The notes below the pieces were generated by a model. The model had not been told where the DNA came from and searched no databases. It saw only the letters and a list, made by a program, of their open reading frames with translations. Below are positions 1 to 13,689 of a stretch of DNA of 13,689 bases, one piece after another. Origin of the DNA: Candidatus Hermodarchaeota archaeon (GTDB lineage Archaea > Asgardarchaeota > Thorarchaeia > Thorarchaeales > Thorarchaeaceae); assembly GCA_048885865.1 (NCBI GenBank), contig JBHLLF010000061.1, positions 1 to 13,689 on the forward strand, read 5' to 3'. Made by a program: the position numbers and the translations under genes. Within the stretch, counting starts at the first letter, position 1; each line of letters begins with the position of its first letter.

Positions 1-164
1 CTCCTACGGTGGATTAACGCCAGTTTCCCGGCGGTGTCCACCTCCACAGGGTAGGTTAGCGACACTACTGAGCCGTTCGCGACGGACTCGGATGCGAGCC
101 CGTTCCACTTGCATGTCTTAACCCCAAGCCGATAGCAGTGTCCTCTAGCAGGATCAACTAGAGT
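1..164 (-). rRNA. rrs: 16S rRNA, 5' end (continues beyond the left edge of the window)
   Basis: Minus strand from 164 reads ACTCTAGTTGATCCTGCTAGAGG...TAAGACATGCAAGT...ACGGCTCAGTA...TAACCTACCC...CGGGAAACTG, collinear with the archaeal 16S 5' domain (ATTCCGGTTGATCCTGCCGGA...). The exact mature 5' end is +/- a few nt. Confidence 0.96.
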
Positions 165-457
165 TGATCACAATCATACACCTTAGCAAGGTAGACCTGA
201 GTAGTAGAAGGTCTAGTGTACGACTTTTTTACACACATGAACTTAGCTTGATGAAGTACAGGCGTAACGGGGATAGTTGGTGAACTTACCCAATTAACCT
301 GCACACTGCTGAGCATATCTTAGACAAGAGGGGATTCCAGCACAGTCGCACCGGTCTATCTCGTGTCCGCATCTTATTCTCGCGCCTGGAAATCGCGGAC
401 CATCATCGCTTGGCATTCGCCGACAGCATCAGGTCTGACACCGTTAGGGCGCGAAGG
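165..457 (-). other. 16S pre-rRNA 5' leader (external transcribed spacer)
   Basis: Lies between the TATA/BRE at 481-495 and the 16S 5' end. Contains several hairpins (minus strand: GGTGTCAG/CTGATGCT, GTCCGC/GCGGAC, GTGCAGG/CCTGTAC, TAGACCT/AGGTCTA). TSS estimated from TATA spacing. Confidence 0.7.
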
Positions 458-480
458 CAGTAGCAATCCCGCGGCATCCG

Positions 481-495
481 AATAAAAAGCTTTCC
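481..495 (-). promoter_or_regulatory. rRNA promoter (BRE + TATA)
   Basis: Minus strand GGAAAGC-TTTTTATT: purine-rich BRE followed by an archaeal TATA box, pointing toward the 16S. Confidence 0.75.
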
Positions 496-560
496 AAGGG
501 TCCACTGTTTCAGCCCCCTTTGCGCAATTCGAAACACAACGAAGGACCCTTGGCACATGA

Positions 561-1595
561 TTAGGTTGTCATCGTTTGTTCTGGAGTCTTTTCCCGACCC
601 ACGAAACCGACTATACTGACCAGCAATAGCAGGGTTGGTCCAACGATTAATCCAGACCATGTGAAAACGGCAAGGCCAGAGAATAAAGCTAGCTTCAGGA
701 TGCCGCTGGAGTCATTCTTCCACCCGGTCTTAAGAGCCCTCAGCGTAGCTATGCCAATTAATATCGGGAATGATGCGAAGAGTAGCGTTACTACCACCTG
801 AGCGTTTGCAGTAACTTGAAGCAAGGCCCAGACCATCTGATACAGGAGTGCCAGTCCACTACCAATGAACAGGAGTCCAGAGATGACACCAGCCCATGTC
901 AGAGCGTCATTCTCGATTCCTTGTTCTTTGCCTCTTCTTGAGTAGAAGATGATGCCAAGAATAAGAGTAATGAGCCATGGAGATAGGATGGCCAAAATGT
1001 GCTGCCCTTCCCATAGATGGATTATCATTACATTGAAAGCCACAAGAATCCACTCATCAAATGTGAACTCCTCTTGGAACCCAATAGCAAGGGCATATCT
1101 CTCATGTTCTGCCTCGTCATAGATTGCTAAGTAGTATGTCCCGGTTTCAGGAATTGTGGTGTCAATGTCAAGGATTTCGAAAAAGGCAGACGGTGTGAAC
1201 CCCTCATACTCTTGAAGGAGTGAGAGGTCATCGTAGATCACATAGCCTGCACCTTGAGGTATCTCGATGTAGTCTGGAGCCGGAGTGGTATTAGCTATTC
1301 CCGGCCCAATTAGAATAAGGATAGGCCGAAACGCAGAAGCCTCTAGTTCTGCAGGTAAGTTCAGTATGAGTCGTAGCCGATCTCCAGCACTCATATCAAA
1401 TGTGTAATAGTGAGCTTCACCGGCTTCATGTAGCTCATGATACATGACCCAAGACTTCAAGGGGTCCTCTATTTCTAGTGCTGTGTCAAGACTGCTACCC
1501 GGTTCACCTCCCACCGGTACATGTGCAGTAGCACCTTGGGCAAGAATGAGTAGAATCACAGCGGCGGCTAAGAATAAAACAGGGCGATTTCGCAT
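561..1595 (-). CDS. Uncharacterised membrane protein: signal peptide, extracellular beta-rich (PPC-like) domain beginning with His, and about 4-5 C-terminal TM helices
   Basis: 344 aa. Signal peptide MRNRPVLFLAAAVILLILAQGATA|HVP with an AxA site; YYTFDMSAGDRLRL...PETGTYYLAI resembles PPC-type beta-sandwiches; hydrophobic C-terminal third. A TATA ~24-29 nt upstream suggests a leaderless mRNA. Confidence 0.85.
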   Translation of the reverse strand: MRNRPVLFLAAAVILLILAQGATAHVPVGGEPGSSLDTALEIEDPLKSWVMYHELHEAGEAHYYTFDMSAGDRLRLILNLPAELEASAFRPILILIGPGIANTTPAPDYIEIPQGAGYVIYDDLSLLQEYEGFTPSAFFEILDIDTTIPETGTYYLAIYDEAEHERYALAIGFQEEFTFDEWILVAFNVMIIHLWEGQHILAILSPWLITLILGIIFYSRRGKEQGIENDALTWAGVISGLLFIGSGLALLYQMVWALLQVTANAQVVVTLLFASFPILIGIATLRALKTGWKNDSSGILKLALFSGLAVFTWSGLIVGPTLLLLVSIVGFVGREKTPEQTMTT

Positions 1596-1604
1596 AATAT
1601 TTCC

Positions 1605-1628
1605 ATTAACTATTGTTAATATAAGAAG
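1605..1628 (-). promoter_or_regulatory. TATA box of the 344-aa gene overlapped by an inverted repeat (candidate operator)
   Basis: Minus strand TTATATT at 1624-1618; ATTAAC-TATT-GTTAAT at 1605-1620 lies between the TATA and the ATG. Confidence 0.6.
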
Positions 1629-1714
1629 TTTGCTATTGGTATCACTAGGAAAGGCTCGTTGATTTCAACATGGATTAAGCAAAGCTGGTACTGGTCGATG
1701 AGTAATACTTCCAT

Positions 1715-1821
1715 AGAATAAAAGGTGATGGAAGGGCGGGGCGAGAACCCCGCCTTTCATTAGCAGAGCCTGGAGGTTATGGCTGCTGCACGCAGTTGTC
1801 GAGCTTCTTCCATCAAATCTG
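1715..1821 (-). ncRNA. Candidate structured small RNA / leader RNA (unassigned family)
   Basis: TATA (TTTATATT, 1851-1844) upstream; 9-bp closing stem TGATGGAAG/CTTCCATCA (1815-1807 with 1734-1726); hairpins GCAG-C-AGCC/GGCT-CTGC and GGCGGGG/CCCCGCC; followed by CCTTTTATT. The strand is inferred from the promoter and U-tract. Confidence 0.5.
1760..1813 (-). CDS. Candidate 17-aa leader peptide / small ORF MEEARQLRAAAITSRLC
   Basis: ATG lies ~8 nt after the predicted TSS and ends in tandem TAA TGA at the base of the GC hairpin. Too short to support by composition. Confidence 0.25.
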   Translation of the reverse strand: MEEARQLRAAAITSRLC

Positions 1822-1843
1822 TATATCAGACATACGAATCGTG

Positions 1844-1851
1844 AATATAAA
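1844..1851 (-). promoter_or_regulatory. TATA box for the candidate small RNA/leader
   Basis: Minus strand TTTATATT, flanked by the inverted repeat ACGAATC (1835-1841)/GATTCGT (1877-1883). Could also act on the + strand (AATATAAA). Confidence 0.5.
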
Positions 1852-1972
1852 GGCAGGATGAACGATAACTCTGTATGATTCGTCTAGCAAGACTCTCCGC
1901 AGAAATATGACTGAAAATCGAAGAAATCGCTTTCTAGCAGCGGGGATTAATCACCAATTCACTCAATTGTCA

Positions 1973-1987
1973 TGGATGAATCATCCA
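1973..1987. promoter_or_regulatory. Palindrome TGGATGA-A-TCATCCA, candidate operator
   Basis: Perfect 7-1-7 inverted repeat 46 bp upstream of the membrane protein/wHTH operon. Confidence 0.45.
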
Positions 1988-2033
1988 ATCACAATAAAGA
2001 CGCAAGAGGAAAGTCTAGGAAAGGCGTACGTCA

Positions 2034-2663
2034 ATGCAGGCAGAAGTGATCGCATTAATCAGACTCGACCTGCTCTTTGAGAGCATCAGTGGCATAATTG
2101 CCATGATAATCGCATACTACGCTACGAAGGCCTACAACCTGACTGAACAGAAGAGGCTCTCTGACCTATCCACGGGCTTCTTGGTCCTTGCAATTGGAAT
2201 GTTCAGCCATGTCATTGGAACATGGTGGTTCTTTGTAAGACTTGGAATAGAAGGCCCAGTCCCTGATTTGGAAACGACTATCAATGTGGTCACTCTTACA
2301 TACCATTTCCTGCAGATCATGGCCTATGTGTTGTTTGCCATTTCCACAAGAAGAGGTGGAAGAATCAAGCAACCCGAGATGGTCATGTTCATGGCACTGC
2401 CCATCCTGATTGATGCGAATCTCGAACTGATTACGGTATTCCTGATGTTGGTTGTTGTCTTGCAGGCATTGCTTAACTATGCAATGGGAAGGAGCAGATT
2501 CGGGCTGTATGTGCTAGGTGGATTCTTCCTGATTTTTCTGAGCCACATATTCCTTCTTACTGCAGGAGAGAATGTCATCAGATATCTCCTAAGTCAGGCA
2601 TTACAACTCCTTGGCTTCTTGACACTCTTGCTCATGCTGTATAAGGTAGGCAAAGCGGAATGA
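2034..2663 (+). CDS. Uncharacterised 6-TM membrane protein built from two 3-TM repeats
   Basis: 209 aa with six hydrophobic segments. E16/A30/Y34/G48-F49 recur as E131/A145/Y149/G163-F164; SH and LQ motifs occur in both halves. Confidence 0.88.
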   Translation: MQAEVIALIRLDLLFESISGIIAMIIAYYATKAYNLTEQKRLSDLSTGFLVLAIGMFSHVIGTWWFFVRLGIEGPVPDLETTINVVTLTYHFLQIMAYVLFAISTRRGGRIKQPEMVMFMALPILIDANLELITVFLMLVVVLQALLNYAMGRSRFGLYVLGGFFLIFLSHIFLLTAGENVIRYLLSQALQLLGFLTLLLMLYKVGKAE

Positions 2664-2953
2664 GTAGAAAACGGGCGTATCGCTCCAAGATGCGCATCCT
2701 CGCCGATATGATGCGCGCCATCCAGAGTGAGGGTGAGGACGGAGCAGGTCCGACAAAGATACTCTATGCTGCCAATCTTTCCCATGATAGATTGACTCAG
2801 TATCTTGATGAGCTTGAGGATAAGGAACTTATCAATCGGATTGGAGATGGTGAAAGCAACAGAGTCTATCATCTCACAGAGAAGGGGAGAGAGTTCCTGA
2901 GTGAGTTTGCGAAGATGGAGAAGTTTTCCGAGGCATTTGGAATCGAGATTTAA
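2660..2953 (+). CDS. Archaeal winged-helix DNA-binding protein (COG3432/Sso10a-like HTH)
   Basis: RSKMRILADM...TKILYAANLS...YLDELEDKELI...YHLTEKGREFL matches the family pattern. ATGA overlap with the upstream gene. Confidence 0.9.
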   Translation: MSRKRAYRSKMRILADMMRAIQSEGEDGAGPTKILYAANLSHDRLTQYLDELEDKELINRIGDGESNRVYHLTEKGREFLSEFAKMEKFSEAFGIEI

Positions 2954-2962
2954 CGATGCCTC

Positions 2963-2974
2963 AAAGGTTTTAAG
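2963..2974 (+). promoter_or_regulatory. tRNA-Ala promoter (BRE+TATA)
   Basis: AAAGG-TTTTAAG ~27 nt before the tRNA. Confidence 0.7.
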
Positions 2975-3001
2975 AAATACATCTTGGAGTCTCAAAGCCA
3001 T

Positions 3002-3109
3002 GGGCCGGTAGATCAGACTGGTAGATCGTCTGATTCGCAAAATCATAGGATTTTCCCTGTGAATCGGGTCTTCAGAAGGTCGCGAGTTCAAATCTCGCCC
3101 GGTCCACCA
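3002..3109 (+). tRNA. tRNA-Ala(CGC) with a 31-nt intron at 37/38 (3040-3070); CCA encoded
   Basis: Acceptor GGGCCGG/CCGGTCC with G3:U70, A73, CCA; D-stem GATC/GATC; anticodon stem TCTGA/TCAGA, loop TT-CGC-A; T-arm GCGAG-TTCAAAT-CTCGC. BHB: central helix TTCG/CGGG, bulges CAA and TCT, intron helix AATCATAGG/CCTGTGAAT. Confidence 0.95.
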
Positions 3110-3166
3110 CTCTTCAGCCTCTGCCGGATGCTAATGCATTTTAATGATAATCTCTCAATTTGTGCT

Positions 3167-3562
3167 ATGCCAGAAATTCTACGAAAAGAACTAGACATGA
3201 GTTTCGAAGATGCTGTCAAGAGAGTCGAGAAACTCACTGAGGAAGGAGGCTTCACAATTCTGCTTACCAAGGGTATGCATGATATGTTCAAGAAGAAATT
3301 GGGAATTGATGACTATCCTCGCAGAACGTTTATTCTTGCATGTTCTGCAGACTTAGCAAAGAAAGCGGTTGATGTGTCTCCAGATATGTCCCTTGTCATG
3401 CCATGCAGCTTCGTGATTGCAGAGGAAGACGACAAGGTTGTGGTCACACATTCCTCAATAATGAAGATGGGCGTAGAGCTTGGTTTTGCTCCAGAAGGCC
3501 CAATGAAGCCAATCATAGAGGAAACTGGAGAACGCGTCCATAAAGTATGGGACAGAATTTAG
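3167..3562 (+). CDS. DUF302 family protein
   Basis: Start moved to ATG 3167 because the longer ORF runs through the tRNA. MSFEDAVKRV...GFTIL...KKKLG...ILAC...MPCSFVI is the DUF302 pattern with two Cys. TTTTAAT at 3139-3145 suggests a leaderless transcript. Confidence 0.85.
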   Translation: MPEILRKELDMSFEDAVKRVEKLTEEGGFTILLTKGMHDMFKKKLGIDDYPRRTFILACSADLAKKAVDVSPDMSLVMPCSFVIAEEDDKVVVTHSSIMKMGVELGFAPEGPMKPIIEETGERVHKVWDRI

Positions 3563-3619
3563 ACTCCAGACCAACCAAATACAGCGGGCGAAAGCTTCAC
3601 TAGATACCATAATCTGATT

Positions 3620-4405
3620 ATGGACATGGTCGACCCAATACAGAGTCAGTGGGAAGCCAACTCTCGGGCCTTCGCTGATTTAATAGATCAGAAGGGCACC
3701 CCACATCACCAACACATCCTCAATCCCTGTGTGGAATATCTAATGGGAGATGTGAAAGGGAAGATACTGCTTGATGCCGGATGTGGAGAGGGCTATTTAT
3801 CACGACACTATGCTCAAAAGGGAGCCATCGTCACCGGAGTGGATATCTCAAATGGACTCATCGAGATTTGCAGGTCTCTGCCAGTCAATAATGTCAACTA
3901 TCATGTAGGCGACATCTGTGACCTCGATTTCATTAAGAATCGTAAATTTGACATTGTTCTCTGTAATCTGGTGTTGCTCAATACGCCTTGTCTGAATGAG
4001 GCGCTGAATGAGTTCTATCGAGTCCTTAAGCCGGGTGGGACATTGGTCTTCTCGGTTGTCCATCCATCATTCAACTTCTATGGGCCGGGTAAATGGGAAA
4101 TGGGTGATAGAGACATTGATACTAAGAGAAGAAAGGGATTATTCTTTAGAGTGGATCGATATTTTGATGAGCGGGAGTACGAGCACATATGGAAGACTCG
4201 AACAGGAGAGTATTTCCCGCAGCCGATAAGCTTCTTTCATAGAACGCTCACAACCTATATTCGCGCAGTCATCGACTCTGGTTTCATCATCTCTAGAATT
4301 GAAGAGCCTCGACCCGTGGTTGATGATGATTTCTTTGAGAGAGAACGCAGAATACCATTCTTTTTGGTTGTGAAAGCCAGAAAACCTTCCACCGATAGCA
4401 CCTGA
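3620..4405 (+). CDS. Class I SAM-dependent methyltransferase
   Basis: LLDAGCGEG motif I, VTGVDIS, FDIV, RVLKPGG, then HP and FHRTL motifs. The start could be 3626. Confidence 0.92.
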   Translation: MDMVDPIQSQWEANSRAFADLIDQKGTPHHQHILNPCVEYLMGDVKGKILLDAGCGEGYLSRHYAQKGAIVTGVDISNGLIEICRSLPVNNVNYHVGDICDLDFIKNRKFDIVLCNLVLLNTPCLNEALNEFYRVLKPGGTLVFSVVHPSFNFYGPGKWEMGDRDIDTKRRKGLFFRVDRYFDEREYEHIWKTRTGEYFPQPISFFHRTLTTYIRAVIDSGFIISRIEEPRPVVDDDFFERERRIPFFLVVKARKPSTDST

Positions 4406-4457
4406 TAACCATAAATGTGTGTAAGTCTGCTTGCAATAAGAAGGGGTTTTGAAAGGA

Positions 4458-5348
4458 ATGCCACTGAACCTAGACGAATTGGATTACCTGAGCATGGGAC
4501 AGAGAGTCAGACTGCATCGTCTGATGTATGAACATGGCCCAGGCAATGGCCGCATGCTTCTTTTGCCTATAGACCAAGGGATGGAACATGGCCCAGTTTC
4601 GTTCTTCCCTAATCCACCGAGTGAAGATCCTGAGTTTCAGTTCAAACTCGCTGACGAGGGAGGCTACTCAGGAATTGCCTTGCACCTTGGACTTGCAGAG
4701 AAATATGGTCCGAAATATGCTGGAAAAGTCCCAATCGTACTGAAGGTCAATGGGAAGACAAAGATACCTCCCGACTCTCATGCTATGTCTCCAATGACTG
4801 CTTCTGTTGAGGATGCGGTCAGGATTGGTGCGGACGCCATTGGATACACATTATACGTTGGCAGTCCTCGCCAAGTTGAGGACATGAATCAATTCAGGAA
4901 GGTAAAGGCAGATGCAGACCGCTATGGAATGCCGATAATCCTCTGGTCATATCCTCGTGGTGAGGCGGTTGACAAAAAGGGAGGAAAGAAGTCACTCTAT
5001 GCAATTGACTATGCCGCTAGAATAGCCAACGAACTAGGAGCAGCTGCCGTCAAGCTCAACGTGCCTGAGGAGGACCCGAAGAAACGTTCTGAACAGCCGG
5101 CTCCTTATGACACGCTAGAGCTCAGCTATGAGGAAAGAGTGAGAAAGGTCATCAAGTCTGCAGGAAAGACCTTGGTGCTTTTCTCTGGAGGAAGCATGTT
5201 GAGTGACGAGGACCTTCTATACAGGGCCAAGGTCTGTCTTGAGGAGGGAGCAGCTGGACTCCTCTTTGGTCGAAACCTTTGGCAAAGAAAATGGGAAGAT
5301 GCCTTGGAAATAACCGAGAAACTCAAGAAGATGATGTTGAAACTCTGA
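4458..5348 (+). CDS. fbaB: Class I (DhnA/archaeal IA-type) fructose-bisphosphate aldolase
   Basis: IDQGMEHGP, LKVNGKT, WSYPRG, ELGAAAVK (Schiff-base Lys), SGG, GRNLWQ. Start is ATG 4458 or TTG 4449. Substrate inferred from the family. Confidence 0.88.
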   Translation: MPLNLDELDYLSMGQRVRLHRLMYEHGPGNGRMLLLPIDQGMEHGPVSFFPNPPSEDPEFQFKLADEGGYSGIALHLGLAEKYGPKYAGKVPIVLKVNGKTKIPPDSHAMSPMTASVEDAVRIGADAIGYTLYVGSPRQVEDMNQFRKVKADADRYGMPIILWSYPRGEAVDKKGGKKSLYAIDYAARIANELGAAAVKLNVPEEDPKKRSEQPAPYDTLELSYEERVRKVIKSAGKTLVLFSGGSMLSDEDLLYRAKVCLEEGAAGLLFGRNLWQRKWEDALEITEKLKKMMLKL

Positions 5349-5415
5349 GAAGCTGGAATGTGCTCATCCCAAAGCCTTTTCCTATGGTTTGGTTCTGGTG
5401 CACTGAGTGAGAGGA

Positions 5416-5850
5416 ATGGCTGAGGAACCAAAACATTACACTGTCCAAGTGAATTGGGACCACGACAAAGGAGGATATGTTTCCGCAGAAGGAAAGCAGA
5501 GCATCAAGATGGTCAGACCGAAGGGTGAAGAAAGCGAACTGGATTCCTATACACCAGAGCATCTCTTCGTCGCTTCAGCTACAGCCTGTTTTATGAATTC
5601 ATTCATCTATTTCACCAGAAAAATGCATATCGGATTCAAGTCATTCGAATGCCAAGGAACTGGCATGCTGGAGCAAATTGGAAAGAGTTTCGAGGTCACG
5701 AAGATTGAGATCAAGTCAAGAGTGGTAATCGAGTCTGACGATCTGCGTTCGAAGATTGAAAGAGCCCTCTACCTTGGCCATAAGTACTGCTTCATAGGAA
5801 ACAGCATGAAGGCATCCATTGCCTATGAGGACGAGATAATAGTAGATTGA
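5416..5850 (+). CDS. OsmC/Ohr family protein (paralog 1)
   Basis: TPEHLFVASATACFM...HKYCFIGNSMK, the two-Cys OsmC pattern. ATG 5416 follows GTGAGAGG. Confidence 0.9.
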   Translation: MAEEPKHYTVQVNWDHDKGGYVSAEGKQSIKMVRPKGEESELDSYTPEHLFVASATACFMNSFIYFTRKMHIGFKSFECQGTGMLEQIGKSFEVTKIEIKSRVVIESDDLRSKIERALYLGHKYCFIGNSMKASIAYEDEIIVD

Positions 5851-5920
5851 ACAATGAGTGTTCTCCTATTCCGAACTCTTTTTCCGAATGGCTCGTAGCA
5901 GGAAAACTAAGTGAATCAAG

Positions 5921-6355
5921 ATGAGCAACGAGTCACATGAATACAATGTGAGAGTTAATTGGATACACGGAAAAACTGGCAAATTCATAATAGGGAGGAA
6001 ACCCGAAATCACGATTGCATCTCCTCCTGAATTTGGTGGACCTGAAGGAATTGTGTCTCCAGAGGACCTCTTTGTTGGAGCTGCTACATCCTGTTTTATG
6101 ACAACCTTTGTTACATTCACTGGGAAGATGAGATTCGACTTCAAGTCTTTCACTTGCGAAGGCAAGGGAACACTTGAACGGGTCGAGAAAGGCTTCCAAT
6201 TTACTAAGATAGAGCTGGATGCGCATGTGGTTGTGGCTTCGCAAGACCTTATACCAAAGGCAGAGAGAGCTCTGGAATTGGCAGGGAAGTATTGCTTGGT
6301 ATCTAACAGCATGAAGTGCCCCACGGAACACCAGAACAATGTGTCAGTCGGATGA
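5921..6355 (+). CDS. OsmC/Ohr family protein (paralog 2)
   Basis: SPPEFGG...SPEDLFVGAATSCFM...KYCLVSNSMK. Confidence 0.93.
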   Translation: MSNESHEYNVRVNWIHGKTGKFIIGRKPEITIASPPEFGGPEGIVSPEDLFVGAATSCFMTTFVTFTGKMRFDFKSFTCEGKGTLERVEKGFQFTKIELDAHVVVASQDLIPKAERALELAGKYCLVSNSMKCPTEHQNNVSVG

Positions 6356-6358
6356 TTC

Positions 6359-8821
6359 TCATTCATCTGGGAGAGGAGTAACAAAGATTACTTCCTCAGA
6401 CTCAGGAAGCGTGACCTCAGTGCCTTGGCCTTTTGGATCAGTGAAGTGCAGCTTCTCAATCCCATGCATCGCCTGAAGGTCTTTTGCCCATGGCTCTAGG
6501 TTGGGGGAAATCCATGCTTCAGCCAGCCCTTTGCGCAAGGATAAGCCGTTCTCCCGCTTGAACTTCCAAAAACCACCGTTGGTCTTGAGAAGAAGATCAG
6601 TATATTCGGTCAATTTCGACTTCCAATTATCATGTGTGGATGGATAGGCCTCCCCATGAATCCCCTTGCTGGAGTATAGCTCGCGATAGATTTTGTCCGT
6701 GATGTAGGGTGTAATCGGAGCCAAGGCTTTTAGTATCAAATTCAGGGTTGTGTGAAGAGCATACCATCCTGACTGTTGCTCCTCTTTTGAGAACCTGCCC
6801 TCTGAATTGAAACACCGTCCTTTCAGCATCTCAATGATATGATCCGCAAAGAGGTTCCAAGTGAAGCCACGGATCTCAATGGTGGGTCTATGGAAGTCCA
6901 AGACGTCGCAGTCTGGCAGAATCTTCTCAATGACAGCATTTGACTCTGCGAGTATCCATTGGTCGACGGGTGTGAGTTTCTTGAAGTCAATTTCTTCAGG
7001 CACAGGAAACATCGAGATGAATCGAGCGATGTTCCAGAGCTTTGTGATGAACTTGGACACCCCAGCCAGACGATCTTCTGCGAACCGGATATCACTTCCA
7101 AGTCCCGCTTCCATCACGCCAAATAGCCGCATCGAGTCTGCGCCATATTTCTCAACGAATGGCATGGGTGGAGGTGAATTGCCCTTTGACTTGCTCATCG
7201 TTTCGCCTTTCTCATCCACCACATGGCCCGATATCCACATCTCGCTGAATGCAGGTTTTTCCGTGAGCTGGTATATCCTTAGCAAAGAGTAGTATAGCCA
7301 AGTCCTCACAATGTCCTTGCCCTGAGGTCGCATGACATTTCCAAAAGCTTTCTTGAAAAGCTTCATGTCACGTGGGTATCCGGCAACATACATACCACTG
7401 ATTGATGAGTCCATCCATGTGTCGAATGTACGATCCTCTCCAGTGAATCCTTCCTCAGCATCACACTTTGGACACTTTGAGAATGGCGGGTCGTCTTTCC
7501 AAGGTTGATAGTACTTGAGTTCACCTGCTTCTGGTACTACAGGCGCTTTACAGGAGTTGCAGTACCAGATTGGAATCTCTGTTCCGTAGTATCTTCTCCT
7601 AGACACCGGCCAATCCACGGTCACACGGTTCAACCAGTCAATGAGGATTTGTCGGTGATGTGACGGAAAGAAGGTACCTTGCTTTGCAATCTCCATCAAT
7701 TGGTCAATGAAGTCCACCTGTTTTACGTAGTACTCCTCCATAGCGATGAACTCGATGGGTGTCTTGCTTCGCCAGCACAATGGTACTCGCTGCATAGATT
7801 GCTCTTGGTCATAGAGAAGGTCTTGCTTCTTAAGCTCAGCAATGATTGCAGCTCGAGCCTCTGCAATCCTCATTCCAGAATAATCGCCTGCGGCATCAGT
7901 CATTCTCCCATCAGGAGATATAGCGGCGATCGGCCTGAGGGCATAATCACGGAATGCCATTACATCAGCTTGATCGCCGTAGCTGCATACCATGAGAGCC
8001 CCAGTTCCAAACTCCATCTGTGCAGTTGGACTCTCAATGATTGGAACTTCCTGATTGAAAAGCGGCACCTTTGCTTTCAGTCCCGCATATCCCTGATAGC
8101 GAGAATCATCAGGATGAATGAACACTGCCCCACAGGCACAGAGCAGTTCCGGGCGTGTTGTTGCTATCTTGATGGGGTCTTTGCCTTCTACATGAAAGTA
8201 CAAGTAATGTAGCGTGGTTGGCCGCTCGGAGTATTCAACCTCTGCATCAGCAATTGTCGTGCCGCAGTCGAAGCACCAGTTGTTAGGCCTATAATCACTG
8301 TACACGAGCCCCTTATTCCAAATGTCAATGAAAGTGTCCTGTGTCACAGCTCTATATTTGGGATCGTCAGTCCTATAGCTGCCTTCGTCGTCGTAAGTGT
8401 TGAAGCCAATCCCAAGCCGCTTGAACCCATCAACAGTAATCTTTTCATCTGCATCAAGCCGCTCTTTGCACTTCTGCAGGAATAGGTCGCGAGGGGTTTC
8501 ATGCATGCTAAGACCAAGATCTTTCTCCACTCTCACTTCTACTGGGAGACCGTTACGGTCAATCCCGAGAGGAAAATTCACCTCATACCCTTGCATTCTC
8601 CGGTACCTTGCATTAATGTCAATCTGAGTGTAGTGAATCACCTGGCCGACATGCATAGGACCTGATAGGTAGGGGGGTGGCGTGTCTACGCTGTAAATCG
8701 TCTTCCCAGAGTTGGGATTGAACGCGTAGGGATCTTCCTTGGACCAAACCGCGAGAATCTCCTCCTCGGACTCTGGCTTCCATCTCTTCGATTTTATTGC
8801 AGGTTCTAACTTGTCTGGCAA
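6359..8821 (-). CDS. valS: Valine--tRNA ligase, archaeal type
   Basis: DTPPPYLSGPMHVGQ (HIGH), TTRPE editing domain, DWPVSRRRYYG, FDTWMDSS, TMSKSKGN (KMSKS), GADSMR. Start set at TTG 8821 behind an AGGAGA SD (8836-8831). Confidence 0.95.
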   Translation of the reverse strand: MPDKLEPAIKSKRWKPESEEEILAVWSKEDPYAFNPNSGKTIYSVDTPPPYLSGPMHVGQVIHYTQIDINARYRRMQGYEVNFPLGIDRNGLPVEVRVEKDLGLSMHETPRDLFLQKCKERLDADEKITVDGFKRLGIGFNTYDDEGSYRTDDPKYRAVTQDTFIDIWNKGLVYSDYRPNNWCFDCGTTIADAEVEYSERPTTLHYLYFHVEGKDPIKIATTRPELLCACGAVFIHPDDSRYQGYAGLKAKVPLFNQEVPIIESPTAQMEFGTGALMVCSYGDQADVMAFRDYALRPIAAISPDGRMTDAAGDYSGMRIAEARAAIIAELKKQDLLYDQEQSMQRVPLCWRSKTPIEFIAMEEYYVKQVDFIDQLMEIAKQGTFFPSHHRQILIDWLNRVTVDWPVSRRRYYGTEIPIWYCNSCKAPVVPEAGELKYYQPWKDDPPFSKCPKCDAEEGFTGEDRTFDTWMDSSISGMYVAGYPRDMKLFKKAFGNVMRPQGKDIVRTWLYYSLLRIYQLTEKPAFSEMWISGHVVDEKGETMSKSKGNSPPPMPFVEKYGADSMRLFGVMEAGLGSDIRFAEDRLAGVSKFITKLWNIARFISMFPVPEEIDFKKLTPVDQWILAESNAVIEKILPDCDVLDFHRPTIEIRGFTWNLFADHIIEMLKGRCFNSEGRFSKEEQQSGWYALHTTLNLILKALAPITPYITDKIYRELYSSKGIHGEAYPSTHDNWKSKLTEYTDLLLKTNGGFWKFKRENGLSLRKGLAEAWISPNLEPWAKDLQAMHGIEKLHFTDPKGQGTEVTLPESEEVIFVTPLPDE

Positions 8822-8889
8822 AACATCAATTCTCCTTGATGTCAACAAGGCTCAGCTGGTGCTGATTCAATCCGCTGAATGGAGTGTGG

Positions 8890-8903
8890 ATTAAAAGGCT
8901 TAT
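8890..8903 (-). promoter_or_regulatory. valS promoter (TATA)
   Basis: Minus strand ATAAGCC-TTTTAAT upstream of the valS SD. Confidence 0.55.
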
Positions 8904-8935
8904 GGGCAAATCCGTTTGACCACGAATCCTAAGCG

Positions 8936-8980
8936 AAAAAGAAGCCAGGGGGACAATGAAAGAACTGTTTCATCGCCCCC
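8936..8980 (-). terminator. Hairpin plus U-tract terminator of the 280-aa gene
   Basis: Minus strand GGGGGCGATGAAA-CAGTTC-TTTCATTGTCCCC (13 bp, 2 G.U), then TGGCTTCTTTTT; starts 11 nt after the stop. Confidence 0.7.
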
Positions 8981-8991
8981 GCAGGGTATTC

Positions 8992-9834
8992 TTAAGCCCA
9001 AAGTCTTCGGCCTATCAATAGGCCTACAATGAGAGTGACAACGCCGATTCCAGCTGCTACAACCAAAGGGACATCCATGCTTAGATTAAGTCCTCCGCCA
9101 GGAAAGCCTGTTGTTTGCACCAACTCGTACGATTCGGTCACGTCGATTGTCGTGTTCTCGTTCTCCCAACTCGTGAATTCAGTGTAACTCAAATCAATCA
9201 GGACGCCATCTTCATCAAAGCTTGACGTGTAGGTATAGATTCTTGTGCCATTGAGATTCTCAGCCAAGTCTTCCATTGACACTTCGATTTGGAATGCGAA
9301 TCTTCCATCACCAATTGACTGACTAATTAGTGTGGATGAGTTATCAGCTTCAGTATCATCGATTGCATCGTTCCAGTCCGTTTCATGAGTGCTCCAGATC
9401 GGATTCACAAAAAGATGCGCTCCCCAGTCGTTCCAACTGTCTTGGGGATATGGAACAACATTTGCGCTCTCTGACCGATTATTTGAGTTAGAGTCACTAG
9501 TTGAGAGATCCCAGTACACCTTTTGATTCTGAAAGTCAACTGATTCGTTGTGGTCTACGTAGAATAATGCACCCCACCAGACATATCCCTGATAGTTGTA
9601 GTTGATGACATCCTCGCCTCCAACTTCGCTTATATTATAGACATAGACCCTGAAATCGCCCGTGATCGAATAGTCATATGAAGGGTCATTATCCACCTGA
9701 GTAGATTCCTGATAGTAAGTCGCGCTGTAGTAGTAGATCCTTCCTTCAACGTCAGCTCTGACAGGTACTGCCGTCAGAGTCGCCATCAATAATCCAATCG
9801 CCATTGAAACGAGAATCATCTTCCTAGAGATCAT
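8992..9834 (-). CDS. Secreted, C-terminally membrane-anchored acidic surface (glyco)protein
   Basis: Signal peptide ending VRA; D/E/S/T/N/Y-rich body with 7 N-x-S/T sequons; GFPGGG linker, TM helix and RR tail. GGTGA SD at 9845-9841; TTTTATAA at 9887-9880. Confidence 0.87.
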   Translation of the reverse strand: MISRKMILVSMAIGLLMATLTAVPVRADVEGRIYYYSATYYQESTQVDNDPSYDYSITGDFRVYVYNISEVGGEDVINYNYQGYVWWGALFYVDHNESVDFQNQKVYWDLSTSDSNSNNRSESANVVPYPQDSWNDWGAHLFVNPIWSTHETDWNDAIDDTEADNSSTLISQSIGDGRFAFQIEVSMEDLAENLNGTRIYTYTSSFDEDGVLIDLSYTEFTSWENENTTIDVTESYELVQTTGFPGGGLNLSMDVPLVVAAGIGVVTLIVGLLIGRRLWA

Positions 9835-9963
9835 CTTTCGTCACCATGCGAAAACTAGCTGTTAGATTCGTTTATGTTCTTATAAAATGGAGTCAGATGT
9901 CTTATACCCACGGTACCGAAACAGTTAACTCTTAAATCTTAACTATCGTTATTGGTGGCATGG

Positions 9964-10944
9964 ATGGATTATGTAAAGCTCGGCCGCACAGGATTGAAGG
10001 TATCACGCTTTGTCTTGGGGACAATGCAGATGGGATGGATAGTAAAAGAAGATGATAGTTTCAAGATTCTCGATGCAGCTTTGGATGCAGGAATTACAGC
10101 ACTCGACACTGCAGACATCTATTCGAAATGGGGTGATGGGTCGTATGCCGGGAAGTCTGAAGAAATCCTAGGAAGATGGATCAAAGACCGAGGAAATAGG
10201 GAAGATCTCATTCTAGCGACAAAGGTTCGTGGAGAGATGAGTGAGATGCCAAATGATGCAGGCCTCTCACGCACGCACATTCTCAACTCGGCGGATAGGA
10301 GCTTGGACAGATTGCAGACTGAATGGATTGATCTATACCAGAGCCACTGGTTTGATACAGATGTGCCTCAAGAGGAAACTCTGAGAGCTTATACAAAACT
10401 CATCGACGACGGTGTGGTCAACTATATAGGTGCTTCAAACTTCACAGCTGCTGAGCTTGTAGAGTCATTCTGGGTCAGTGACAAAAACGGGCTAGCGAGA
10501 TATGACTCACTTCAGCCACCTTATAGCCTAGCAAGAAGAAGGGATTATGAGAAACATCTTGAGCCAGTTATTGTCAAGTATGGTCTAGGCGTAATCAGTT
10601 ACAGTCCACTGGGGGGCGGGTTCCTAACCGGAAGATACACCAAAGATGCTTCTCCAGACTCTAAGAGGGCGCCGACAATTGGGACCAGGTATGGAAAGGA
10701 ACGAAACTATAGAATCGTAGAAGTTCTTGAAGACCTAGCGGTCGCATATGATGCATCGGCAGCCCAGATTGCATTGGCATGGATATTGACTAGGAATACT
10801 GTCACCGCGCCCATTGTTGGTGTCAACACCTTGGAGCAGTTGAAGGAGAATCTTGGCGCTTTTGAGATAAAACTCTCCAATGATGACTTAGAAAGGCTGA
10901 ACACTGTGTCAGACTGGGAAGAGATGGACTATTTGGCACGATGA
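9964..10944 (+). CDS. Aldo/keto reductase (Tas/YajO-like)
   Basis: LGRTGLKVS, DTADIY, LATK, SLDRLQTEWIDLYQSH, YIGASN, YSPLGGGFLTG, AQIALAW, QLKENL. GGTGG SD before ATG 9964. Confidence 0.95.
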   Translation: MDYVKLGRTGLKVSRFVLGTMQMGWIVKEDDSFKILDAALDAGITALDTADIYSKWGDGSYAGKSEEILGRWIKDRGNREDLILATKVRGEMSEMPNDAGLSRTHILNSADRSLDRLQTEWIDLYQSHWFDTDVPQEETLRAYTKLIDDGVVNYIGASNFTAAELVESFWVSDKNGLARYDSLQPPYSLARRRDYEKHLEPVIVKYGLGVISYSPLGGGFLTGRYTKDASPDSKRAPTIGTRYGKERNYRIVEVLEDLAVAYDASAAQIALAWILTRNTVTAPIVGVNTLEQLKENLGAFEIKLSNDDLERLNTVSDWEEMDYLAR

Positions 10945-11062
10945 TTAATTCTAGTAAGCTCAATCGCCTTTCGAAATATCGTCAATCCTGTCCATTCAAG
11001 AAAGCTTCTTTAATGCCGCGAAGAAAATGTAGTTGTTCGGAGATTGTACCAGGGGACTCGAA

Positions 11063-11746
11063 ATGCGAGCTGTTCTGAAACTAGGAGGTTCACTCCTTTA
11101 TGATGACACGGGCCGGATTCTCATCAACACGGTGAGAGACTATGCAAAAGGAGTGGACTTCATCGTTGAAGACGGTCACAGCATGGTCATCGTAGTTGGA
11201 GGTGGAAGGCCAGCACGAGTCTTCATATCTGCTGCGAGAGCACTAGGAGCAAGCGAAACTCAGTGTGACTGGTTGGGAATCAAAGTCGCACGTAACAATG
11301 CTGAGCTGTTCTGTGCTGCCCTTGGTGATATTGCATATCCAAAAGTTGTGGAAACGCTAGACGAACTTGAGACCGCCATCCAATTCGGAAAGGTGGTTCT
11401 TATGGGCGGTCTAAACCCAGGTCAATCCACCAATGCTGTTGCAGCTCTTGCCGCTGAAACTGTAGAGGCGGATTTGCTGATGAATGCAACTAACGTGGAT
11501 GGAGTCTATGACCGAAACCCCAAGATATCAGGTGCAAAGAAGCTTGATACCGTGACTGTTGATCAGCTGAGCAAGATACTGGCGGAATCGGGCACTCGCG
11601 CAGGTGAGTACAAACTGTTCGATCCTGTTGCGATTCGTGTGGTGGGAAGGTCTAAGATTCCAACCGTCATCTTCAATGGAAATGACCCTATGAACTTCCG
11701 TCAAGTGATGAAGGGTGCAAGAATTGGTACTAGGATAGTACATTAG
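11063..11746 (+). CDS. pyrH: UMP kinase, archaeal type
   Basis: VLKLGGS, VVGGGRPAR, DWLGI, PGQSTNAVAA, ATNVDGVYDRNP, AGEYKLFDPVA, GTRI. AGGGG SD; AAAGCTTCTTTAAT promoter-like element at 11001-11014. Confidence 0.95.
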   Translation: MRAVLKLGGSLLYDDTGRILINTVRDYAKGVDFIVEDGHSMVIVVGGGRPARVFISAARALGASETQCDWLGIKVARNNAELFCAALGDIAYPKVVETLDELETAIQFGKVVLMGGLNPGQSTNAVAALAAETVEADLLMNATNVDGVYDRNPKISGAKKLDTVTVDQLSKILAESGTRAGEYKLFDPVAIRVVGRSKIPTVIFNGNDPMNFRQVMKGARIGTRIVH

Positions 11747-11757
11747 CCGAACAAACC

Positions 11758-12087
11758 ATGTCTGAAAGGGGAAACCAAGAGTTGAGAAAATTGCTCGAGA
11801 AAGTATTTGCATCACGGGCTCAGACACGAGTAGTTCAGCACTTTCTGGAACGTCCTAAGGAGTTCTTCAATCTTAGCAGAATTGCCAAGGAAACTGGCTT
11901 GGCACACTCGACTATTCATCGCGTGATGCAGCCTCTTGTGGATATGGGTCTCGTGAAGGAGATCAAGGTCGGACAGCAGATTCGACTCTTCATCCTCGAA
12001 ACTGAAGAAACAAAGAGCAAGATCCTTGCAGACTTTTACGAGCAAATCAAGCCGCTTTTGGAAGAGATGCCACCTGAGAGGAGCTGA
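11758..12087 (+). CDS. Winged-helix DNA-binding protein (ArsR/MarR-like fold)
   Basis: FNLSRIAKETGLAHSTIHRVMQPLVDMGLV HTH plus wing (IKVGQQIRLF); 11 bp after pyrH. Confidence 0.87.
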   Translation: MSERGNQELRKLLEKVFASRAQTRVVQHFLERPKEFFNLSRIAKETGLAHSTIHRVMQPLVDMGLVKEIKVGQQIRLFILETEETKSKILADFYEQIKPLLEEMPPERS

Positions 12088-12098
12088 AAGGCGCTATA

Positions 12099-12890
12099 CT
12101 ATTTTTCAATGAGAAACTCGATCAAGGTCTTGTTGAGTTCATCAGTCATCTGAACATTTGGCGAATGACCGCACCCCTCAAAGACCTTGAGTCTTGACCC
12201 CTTTATCCCTTCATGAAGTGTTCTTCCTAGTTCAAGATTTATGATTCGATCTTCCTCTCCATGGATTACTAGAGTCTTTGATTTAATATTGGACAGTTGC
12301 TCCGTGAAATCAATCGTAGAGAATCCGAGCCCCGCTGCCAAGACTCCTTCAGGATTTGTGTCAGCTGACTTATCCTTCAGATACTGAACCATCTCGGGGT
12401 TATTCTCAATCCACTCATCACTGTAGCCACTTCGAAGAGAGGTCCAGAAGTAGGCCTCGTCACCACCATCAACCTGTGCCTCTCTCCAGCTATAGACAAC
12501 ATCAATCAAATCCTCCGTTATCTTAGGAGTAGTATCAATCAGGACCAACTTATCGACTCGTTCTGGGTACCTGATAACAAAGTTCTGGGCCACCAAACCT
12601 CCCAATGAAATGCCAACGACATGCACTTTTTCATGGCCAAGATGCTCTAGCAGCGCGTTCAGGTCATCTGCAACCATATCTGGTGGAATCATCATTCCAA
12701 GCTCTTCCACTGTTGTCTGCCCATGCCCTCTTAGGTCGGGCATAATAAGGTGGAAACGTGCTGCGAGGGCTTGTTCTTGAAATTCCCATCCGCGGTGGTC
12801 TCCACCAAGACCATGAATCAATAGAACCGGATCGCCCTCACCTACGGTCTTGTAGAACATCGATATATCATCGTGGTCAAAGCGAGGCAT
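12099..12890 (-). CDS. Alpha/beta-fold hydrolase (PcaD/MhpC-like)
   Basis: LLIHGLGG, DLRGHG, GISLGG nucleophile elbow, GEEDRI, GCGH. Start at ATG 12890 behind AGGAG. Confidence 0.93.
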   Translation of the reverse strand: MPRFDHDDISMFYKTVGEGDPVLLIHGLGGDHRGWEFQEQALAARFHLIMPDLRGHGQTTVEELGMMIPPDMVADDLNALLEHLGHEKVHVVGISLGGLVAQNFVIRYPERVDKLVLIDTTPKITEDLIDVVYSWREAQVDGGDEAYFWTSLRSGYSDEWIENNPEMVQYLKDKSADTNPEGVLAAGLGFSTIDFTEQLSNIKSKTLVIHGEEDRIINLELGRTLHEGIKGSRLKVFEGCGHSPNVQMTDELNKTLIEFLIEK

Positions 12891-12955
12891 GATATCCGCT
12901 CCTGAAGTATTCGGGCGCAAATCCAACGGATAAGCTTGTCGAAGTGGTGAATGCC

Positions 12956-12971
12956 AAAACTGCTAAATATA
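12956..12971 (+). promoter_or_regulatory. tRNA-Leu promoter (BRE+TATA)
   Basis: AAAACTGC-TAAATATA ~23 nt before the tRNA. Confidence 0.7.
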
Positions 12972-12994
12972 GACTCGACTGAAATCCATACACT

Positions 12995-13136
12995 GCCGAG
13001 GTAGTCAAGAGGCCAAAGACGGTGGACTCAAGATCTAAGGCTTTGACGCCCATGGGATATCCACTCCCGTAGGGGTTCGCTGATTGGCTGCCAATCAGCG
13101 CCCAAATCGCGAGTTCGAATCTCGTCCTCGGCACCA
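12995..13136 (+). tRNA. tRNA-Leu(CAA) with a 26-nt intron at 37/38 (13033-13058) and a second 30-nt insert/intron at ~46/47 (13077-13106); CCA encoded
   Basis: Acceptor GCCGAGG/CCTCGGC, A73, CCA; D-stem GTC/GAC; anticodon stem GTGGA/TCCAC, loop CT-CAA-G/A; variable arm TCCCGTAGGGGT; T-arm GCGAG-TTCGAAT-CTCGT. Removing both inserts yields an ordinary 86-nt class II tRNA. Confidence 0.93.
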
Positions 13137-13251
13137 CATCTTTCTGAAACTTATCATGTAGTGCTATTCAAAAGAAGGAGGGCCACTCACTTTGCATCCA
13201 ACGCGAGTACTTCTTGAAGGATGAGAGAAGATTCATTTCGGGGTTCATCTG

Positions 13252-13272
13252 CTTCCTTCTGGGAGAAGGGAG
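13252..13272. terminator. Hairpin between the convergent tRNA-Leu and 125-aa gene
   Basis: CTTCCTTCT-GGG-AGAAGGGAG, 9 bp with one G.U on the + strand; 8 bp from the stop of the 125-aa gene. Confidence 0.4.
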
Positions 13273-13280
13273 GAAATCAG

Positions 13281-13658
13281 CTATTCTTCAGACGGAAGTT
13301 TATGGGGAGGAGCATCATCCAGAGTCAACTCGCGTGCAACTAATGCACGTAGGTAGGAATCAATAGACCTGAGGCGCTGTTCATAGGTCAGATCACTATC
13401 CTGAAAGGCTCTCCGACTCATAGCATGATAGCGTCCTTCAACCTTAATGACGATTGTATTGCTCTCAGTCCTGACCAAGCGTATCAGTGGTTGCTGTTGA
13501 ATATACATAATCAGCTCTAACCATTTCTCAGCAGTACTTGGATTCAGACCAATATCCTTCAGCTTGGACTTTGGAATAGGATCATTGTTTTCCTCAAGAA
13601 GTCCGAAAATCGCCTGTGCTCTTTCAAGAAGGGTCCGTCTTGAACTCAATCGATTCAT
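13281..13658 (-). CDS. Hypothetical protein with a probable N-terminal winged-helix domain
   Basis: 125 aa. ERAQAIFGLL...PKSKLKDIGLNPSTAEKWLELI looks like helix + HTH, followed by a beta-hairpin (IRLVRTESNTIVIKV) and a helical tail. Confidence 0.75.
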   Translation of the reverse strand: MNRLSSRRTLLERAQAIFGLLEENNDPIPKSKLKDIGLNPSTAEKWLELIMYIQQQPLIRLVRTESNTIVIKVEGRYHAMSRRAFQDSDLTYEQRLRSIDSYLRALVARELTLDDAPPHKLPSEE

Positions 13659-13670
13659 CTCACATTCCAG

Positions 13671-13682
13671 TACAATATTGTA
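13671..13682. promoter_or_regulatory. Perfect palindrome TACAATATTGTA, candidate operator
   Basis: 12-bp perfect palindrome 12 bp upstream of the ATG of the 125-aa gene. Confidence 0.5.
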
Positions 13683-13689
13683 TCTATAG

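Follow-up and report, generated by a model that had tools for sequence, protein, structure and literature searches.

Few archaeal routes from a membrane signal to transcription have been characterised. In Haloferax volcanii, a pHV3 gene for a DUF7521 protein with three transmembrane (TM) helices abuts a gene for an HTH_20 winged helix-turn-helix (wHTH) protein (HVO_RS00945/HVO_RS00950), locus tags that we take to be those of HVO_B0192-B0193. HVO_B0192-B0193 are co-transcribed (PMC8406309), and the pair has been reported only as strongly up-regulated, upon cdrS repression and upon qarA deletion (PMC8406309; bioRxiv 10.1101/2025.11.10.687552). Sso10a1 and Sso10a2 (PDB 1r7j, 4hw0) are HTH_45 proteins, described as being of the architectural or chromatin type, abundant and with a long C-terminal coiled coil, and a membrane partner for Sso10a proteins is not mentioned in PMC4941522. 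The bacterial BlaR1-BlaI and MecR1-MecI systems are autoregulated, kinase-free operons with the membrane protein gene first, the wHTH gene second and palindromic operators. Here we analyse a 13,689-nt stretch of DNA from a Candidatus Hermodarchaeota archaeon of the Thorarchaeaceae (contig JBHLLF010000061.1, positions 1 to 13,689; hereafter the window), in which a gene for a six-TM protein (TM6) is followed by a wHTH gene. An earlier annotation of the same sequence (the original prediction) had joined these two genes to a divergent gene for a 344-aa protein as a three-gene metal-sensing and metal-handling module. Our analyses support that prediction only in part, and point instead to a phylum-spanning, uncharacterised and probably autoregulated 6-TM/HTH_45 cassette accompanied by a family-specific structured RNA.

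The pair in the window is like the haloarchaeal one in that a small wHTH gene adjoins a membrane protein gene in one operon, and the N-terminal repeat of TM6 shares with the haloarchaeal DUF7521 protein the TM1-loop-TM2 motif YxAxxxY...R/K...L..GF. On the other hand, the haloarchaeal protein is one 3-TM unit of 103 aa whereas TM6 appears to be a tandem 6-TM protein, and the haloarchaeal partner is HTH_20 (ArsR-like) with the gene order reversed whereas the partner of TM6 is HTH_45. By sequence the latter falls in the same family as Sso10a1 and Sso10a2, but its tail is shorter and bears an F..FG motif and, unlike Sso10a, it is associated with a membrane gene and a specific palindrome. The likeness to BlaR1-BlaI and MecR1-MecI is one of outline, as the families are unrelated and TM6 lacks both the HExxH metalloprotease motif (absent from its sequence) and the extracellular sensor domain of BlaR1/MecR1. 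Proteolytic signalling by TM6 is thus not indicated; a rhomboid or site-2-protease identity was likewise dropped, given that the motifs are absent and no such fold was matched.

The conserved unit is a pair of genes, TM6 and then an HTH_45/Sso10a-like wHTH, and it recurs across several archaeal phyla. In every Thorarchaeota locus with TM6, the wHTH gene lies directly downstream with an overlap of 0-4 nt (ATGA at 2660-2663 in the window, coupling the two genes in translation), while the upstream neighbour of TM6 varies within the family (Zn-ribbon protein, aminopeptidase-like protein, amidohydrolase or secreted protein). The same order with overlapping codons occurs in Nitrososphaerales and metagenome loci, the overlap being TTGA in one remote locus. 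A TM6 profile search returned 289 representative clusters, with Korarchaeota and Nitrososphaerales among the named members, and the profile matched 105 of 301 Thermoproteota genomes. Within Thermoproteota the wHTH gene is immediately downstream of TM6 in 39 of 47 loci (24 of 31 and 15 of 16 in two samples), and the two genes also co-occur: a wHTH match at E <= 1e-12 is present in each of the 105 TM6-positive genomes, as against 78 of the 196 TM6-negative ones, and the 52 genomes in which the match reaches E <= about 5e-24 all carry TM6. These genomes were counted manually, and those that are related do not count as independent. Adjacency, order, start/stop overlap, co-occurrence and the shared operator described below together support TM6 and the wHTH as a functional pair, as judged from sequence comparison.

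Seven exceptions to adjacency in Thermoproteota form one clade, in which an ortholog-grade wHTH is found elsewhere in the genome. In this GC-rich unlinked clade (L055, L057, L060-L064 and L100-L104), TM6 stands without an adjacent wHTH gene, between a gene for a secreted protein of ~190 aa and an Asp/Asn-tRNA synthetase-like gene, and the lone ortholog-grade wHTH lies about 150 kb off, beside an aspartate carbamoyltransferase-like gene.

An operator-like palindrome accompanies the pair. Its core, GATGAWTCATC, starts 59 nt before the TM6 ATG in the window and is found at -59/-60 in 20 of 21 non-redundant Thorarchaeota loci, most of which carry a second copy at -118 to -161. Exact copies of the core occur at -39 to -71 in Thermoproteota loci L043, L049-L052 and L056, and a near-identical GTATGAATCGTCTA follows the TATA box in remote metagenomic loci (L037-L039) whose wHTH is just 41% identical. 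Five exact copies are present in the 3.58-Mb genome, the other four being inside ORFs (open reading frames) or at an ORF start, and in a genome-wide scan with a position weight matrix (PWM) the proximal site of the window ranked first (score 25.0) and the distal site fifth. Because the palindrome holds a fixed spot upstream of the operon and has exact copies in another phylum, autoregulation is likely, and the simplest reading of these sequences is that the wHTH probably binds the palindromes and controls its own operon. The second-best site of the scan, TGGATGAATCATACA, lies outside the window, in an intergenic region of another contig (C26, position 4086), beside a TATA-like box; the 82-aa Cys-rich ORF that follows about 90 nt downstream may be a second target.

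The cassette is an uncharacterised one with a predictable operator, and it occurs in roughly one third of the Thermoproteota genomes sampled and in the majority of genomes of the Thorarchaeota family studied here. It also offers a hypothesis to work from for the haloarchaeal DUF7521/HTH operon, whose transcript ranks among those most strongly regulated in two studies of H. volcanii.

The wHTH matches Pfam HTH_45 (PF14947) at 3e-20, with 72.5 bits against a cut-off of 25.5, and this is its sole domain, in agreement with the original prediction that no ligand-binding domain is present. It also matches NCBIfam NF053610 (Sso10a family; 68.2 bits against a cut-off of 60) and the sequence of the Sso10a structure 1r7j (E = 5e-6), from which similarity we regard it as a homolog of Sso10a1 and Sso10a2, both of them DNA-binding proteins. 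No match to ArsR families (HTH_5/HTH_20) was found at E <= 0.1, the protein has no Cys and no invariant His, and its C-terminal F..FG tail is invariant in the alignment. Such a protein could be a general Sso10a-like chromatin protein, linked to TM6 without regulatory meaning and next to palindromes that belong to another factor. Consistent with this, it lies above the cut-off of the NCBIfam model 'Sso10a family chromatin protein', and Sso10a proteins are reportedly abundant architectural DNA binders (PMC4941522). However, the palindrome accompanies the pair from phylum to phylum and keeps a fixed place in the promoter, ortholog-grade wHTH proteins are confined to TM6-positive genomes and the gene overlap is conserved, so that we consider a purely architectural role very unlikely. 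If the regulatory reading is true, members of the Sso10a/HTH_45 group, mostly viewed as chromatin proteins, would gain a specific role in regulation.

TM6 is less readily placed. In hmmscan it scores 26.5 bits for Pfam DUF7521 (PF24365; cut-off 27), with only residues 21-71, in the N-terminal repeat, matching; in a six-frame search the gene scores 28.9 bits, and 6 of the 19 matching family genomes, that of the window included, are over the cut-off. One TM6 ortholog carries the NCBI name 'DUF7521 family protein', and the TM6 profile aligns to HVO_RS00945, itself at 41 bits for DUF7521, over 37 columns spanning TM1-loop-TM2 (hhalign E = 4.8e-5, probability 68%). TM6 is not a single DUF7521 unit (about 80-100 aa, three TM helices), as it has 209 aa and six helices, the latter seen in an AlphaFold2 (AF2) model with a mean predicted local distance difference test (pLDDT) score of 77. 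Its N and C halves align in register (hhalign E = 8.6e-5, probability 60%), and a tandem 3+3 TM repeat is therefore a reasonable, moderately supported description; with an odd number of helices in each repeat, the two would be inverted relative to one another.

The symmetric intramembrane residues to which the original prediction drew attention are in place, with E16 paired to E131 and S57-H58 to S170-H171, but their conservation is uneven: within the Thorarchaeota family E16 never varies and conservation of E131 and H171 is 90% or higher, while H58 is often Arg, and in the wider family the E16, E131, H58 and H171 positions appear in the consensus only, not as invariant columns. The most conserved part of TM6 is the TM1-TM2 loop, at residues about 28-49 and probably on the cytoplasmic side. 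Loops are of about 12 residues or fewer, except for a disordered one at 109-126, and there is no sizeable extracellular domain. The sole domain fusion seen in the family, the 1033-aa metagenomic protein P0280, carries four Big_3_5 Ig-like domains on the N-terminal side of its TM6 domain, an arrangement suggesting that the N-terminus of TM6 is outside the cell. Structure searches gave little further guidance: Foldseek against the PDB yielded no match at E <= 0.001, VIA-align wide yielded just generic 7TM/G-protein-coupled-receptor-like helical bundles (Z up to 14.1, near the level common for such bundles), and the ESM Atlas yielded unnamed archaeal clusters and a HisKA_7TM lead at 0.77, below a useful score.

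Given these features, we lean, by a little, towards a self-regulated two-gene archaeal cassette in which TM6 and an Sso10a/HTH_45 wHTH act as a putative kinase-free sensor-regulator pair. The wHTH, probably as a dimer, would bind GATGAWTCATC, of which one copy would abut the transcription factor B recognition element (BRE) and TATA box of the operon promoter and the second would lie in the promoter region that the operon shares with a divergent small RNA specific to Thorarchaeota. By this binding the operon would control itself, probably through repression, and the small RNA may come under the same control. TM6, for its part, would bind or release the wHTH on a putative intramembrane signal, candidates for which are an ion, a proton or a lipophilic ligand at its buried Asp/Glu/His/Gln network. 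We count in favour of such a TM6-wHTH contact the membrane-gene-first coupling, the conserved TM1-TM2 loop, the outside N-terminus and the invariant F..FG tail. A bolder form, in which this is an ancient archaeal signalling pair (in Asgard archaea and Thermoproteota, and split in Halobacteria) with TM6 gating the wHTH and with an output that includes the small RNA in Thorarchaeota, appears to us possible but doubtful.

Several observations weigh against the sensor-regulator reading. The genome-wide operator scan pointed to no clear regulon apart from the promoter of the pair itself, most other high-scoring sites being in ORFs; 29 of 51 more distant loci have no operator site within two mismatches; the position of the operator beside the BRE is compatible with either repression or activation; the DUF7521 link is borderline (26.5 against 27 bits, hhalign probability 60-68%); and a look for fused or longer forms found no TM6-wHTH fusion, though this is weak evidence. 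With no visible regulon, a repressor-plus-effector arrangement fits at least as well as a sensor. Here the wHTH itself would sense a cytoplasmic ligand and derepress the operon, and TM6 would be the output, for example a small exporter or channel working through its buried acidic residues, with no signalling contact between the two. A 3+3 inverted repeat whose conserved Asp/Glu lie within the membrane is a typical design among small transporters, and the inverted-repeat topology and buried acidic residues of TM6, its lack of a sizeable extracellular domain, the location of the genome's strongest operator at the pair's own promoter, and the H. volcanii order (the regulator gene precedes the membrane protein gene, like that of arsR- or cadC-type operons) all agree with such an arrangement. 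Yet a 97-aa wHTH without Cys or extra domain leaves scant space for binding a ligand, the membrane-gene-first order with its 4-nt overlap is kept across phyla and suggests matched production of partners, the conservation peak of TM6 is a probably cytoplasmic loop and no pore-like feature, and TM6 matched no transporter fold. We regard the repressor-plus-effector arrangement as unlikely, if less so than the architectural role weighed above.

The features of the locus are collected in Table 1. The three genes, the ATGA overlap, the palindromes and the RNA structure of the original prediction were all confirmed, the ORFs and a fold with its minimum free energy (MFE) and z-score bearing this out, as was the 438-bp length of the spacer between the 344-aa and TM6 genes (1596-2033; the remaining protein-gene spacers in the window are about 43-143 bp). 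This spacer is, however, made up of three parts, a promoter for the 344-aa gene, an RNA gene and the control region of the operon, and is not one shared regulatory region; its length is explained by its holding an independent RNA gene and three predicted promoters.

Table 1. Coordinates of features in and around the TM6-wHTH locus (positions in the window; a point marks a feature without strand).
Feature	Position	Strand	Remarks
16S rRNA, 5' end	1-164	-	Flank of the three-gene block
344-aa protein gene	561-1595	-	ORF
344-aa gene promoter region (predicted)	1606-1625	-	TATA-like CTTATATTAA (plus-strand 1616-1625), about 20-30 nt from the ATG
Structured small RNA gene (candidate, independent)	1717-1822	-	Covariance-model span; core 1727-1814, 88 nt
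GGATGAA half-site	1856-1866		Accompanies the distal palindrome; beside TATA box AATATAAAG (1844-1852)
Distal degenerate palindrome TGTATGATTCGTCTA	1872-1886	.	Between the divergent RNA gene and the operon; core 1874-1884
Proximal operator-like palindrome TGGATGAATCATCCA	1973-1987	.	5 nt upstream of TATA-like ACAATAAAGA (1991-2000); core 1975-1985
TM6 gene, 6-TM protein, 209 aa	2034-2663	+	ORF
wHTH gene, 97 aa	2660-2953	+	ORF
Intron-bearing tRNA	3002-3106	+	Rfam tRNA, 55.9 bits; downstream bound of the operon

The middle part of the spacer holds an independent, covarying RNA gene, a candidate small RNA whose assignment to the minus strand follows from the pattern of changes in its stems: each of the four changes that affect one side of a stem only leaves a G-U pair on the minus strand but A-C on the plus strand. 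The core comprises a stem P1 (8 bp), a conserved single strand CGACAACUGC, a variable hairpin P2, a GC hairpin P3 and a pyrimidine-rich tail, and folds with an MFE of -41.1 kcal/mol (z = -4.65). Of 19 homologs, 18 fold independently to the same P1/junction/P2/P3 shape even though their P2 sequences are unrelated. By covariance model the RNA is single-copy and present in 18 of 26 genomes of the Thorarchaeota family and in none of 124 other Asgard genomes. Of the 12 RNA loci retrieved, 11 carry the TM6-wHTH pair, and in all cases with coordinates for both, the RNA and TM6 are on opposite strands. No Rfam family matched the RNA at the gathering threshold, and a permissive scan gave chance-level hits only (E > 2). 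This family-specific RNA adds to the unclassified RNAs of Asgard archaea. Two other roles for this sequence were rejected: a 17-codon ORF inside the RNA is shifted in frame by a 1-nt indel between genera, and an anti-Shine-Dalgarno function of the P2 loop is at odds with a loop sequence that is not conserved outside the genus.

The 344-aa gene lies outside the cassette, as it adjoins TM6 in just six genus-mates and appears to have a promoter of its own. The neighbourhood and co-occurrence check of the three-gene unit therefore upheld only the TM6-wHTH part, which is conserved across phyla. The 344-aa promoter block is kept in all six genomes with this arrangement and contains an inverted repeat, TTAAC-N4-GTTAA, at 1606-1619. 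In genome G001 an insert of ~450 bp carrying a gene for a 163-aa Zn-ribbon protein parts the block from the RNA gene. Multi-CxxC Zn-ribbon genes of 161-163 aa are found beside the RNA gene at L015:927-1418 (G001), L005:2501-2986 and L008:2491-2982, and their placement in genus-mates suggests that the arrangement in the window arose by local rearrangement. In four genomes (G012, G020, G023 and G024) the 344-aa gene is on other contigs or 127 kb from the pair, two more (G004 and G016) also carry copies away from it, and the neighbours of the gene are unrelated from genome to genome.

These data bear directly on the metal/heme module, in which TM6 would sense Cu, Ni or heme and the wHTH would control the 344-aa protein as an N-terminal-His capture protein, with the nearby DUF302 gene in the regulon. 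A few observations are consistent with it. First, His25, right after the predicted signal peptide of the 344-aa protein (ATA|HVP), is invariant in 27 homologs, together with Pro27, such that the mature protein is predicted to begin with His. Second, its ectodomain resembles the copper proteins MopE and CorA, albeit weakly (Foldseek 5e-4 and 1.4e-3, with low TM-scores). Third, the three genes are adjacent in the six genus-mates. In contrast, the 344-aa gene is distant in the four genomes listed above, with varied neighbours for both it and TM6, and it is not supported as a regulated target, in that its predicted promoter has its own TATA box and no operator palindrome, with the RNA gene (and in G001 the Zn-ribbon gene as well) standing between it and the operators. 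Nor is a place for DUF302 in the regulon supported, as its synteny is kept within the family only and no operator lies upstream of it; no homolog of the 344-aa, DUF302 or methyltransferase genes was found near the pair in other phyla, and these genes are local neighbours only. As for Cu, Ni or heme sensing itself, we found no evidence for it: the wHTH has no metal-binding motif, Cys included, and His58 of TM6, often Arg, is not conserved. The lack of co-location already contradicts the metal/heme module, and the chance that the locus is one appears extremely small.

The AF2 model of the 344-aa protein (pLDDT 87) consists of a beta-sandwich ectodomain followed by a C-terminal multi-helix membrane domain, and the ectodomain is alike in fold to the PPC/collagen-binding domains, matching that of ColG (1nqd) with a Foldseek E of 1.6e-5 and a target TM-score of 0.68. 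It differs from PPC domains in its fused membrane domain, its His-x-Pro start and a sequence that remains below the Pfam cut-off, PPC (PF04151) being its sole and sub-threshold match (15.6 against 25.9 bits). No known histidine-brace family (CopC, YcnI, LPMO) was matched by sequence. The family has a conserved WEGQ motif at the membrane boundary, and its look-alikes in the ESM Atlas are unnamed clusters, mostly of Methanobacteriota.

The tRNA that bounds the operon downstream was not called by ARAGORN; by its sequence it reads as a probable tRNA-Ala whose anticodon arm carries ~30 inserted nt. A second intron-bearing tRNA, at 12995-13133 on the plus strand, was likewise seen by Rfam and missed by ARAGORN. 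Elsewhere in the window, two tandem OsmC-like genes (5407-5850 and 5921-6355, both on the plus strand) sit downstream of genes for a DeoC/LacD-family aldolase and a class I methyltransferase.

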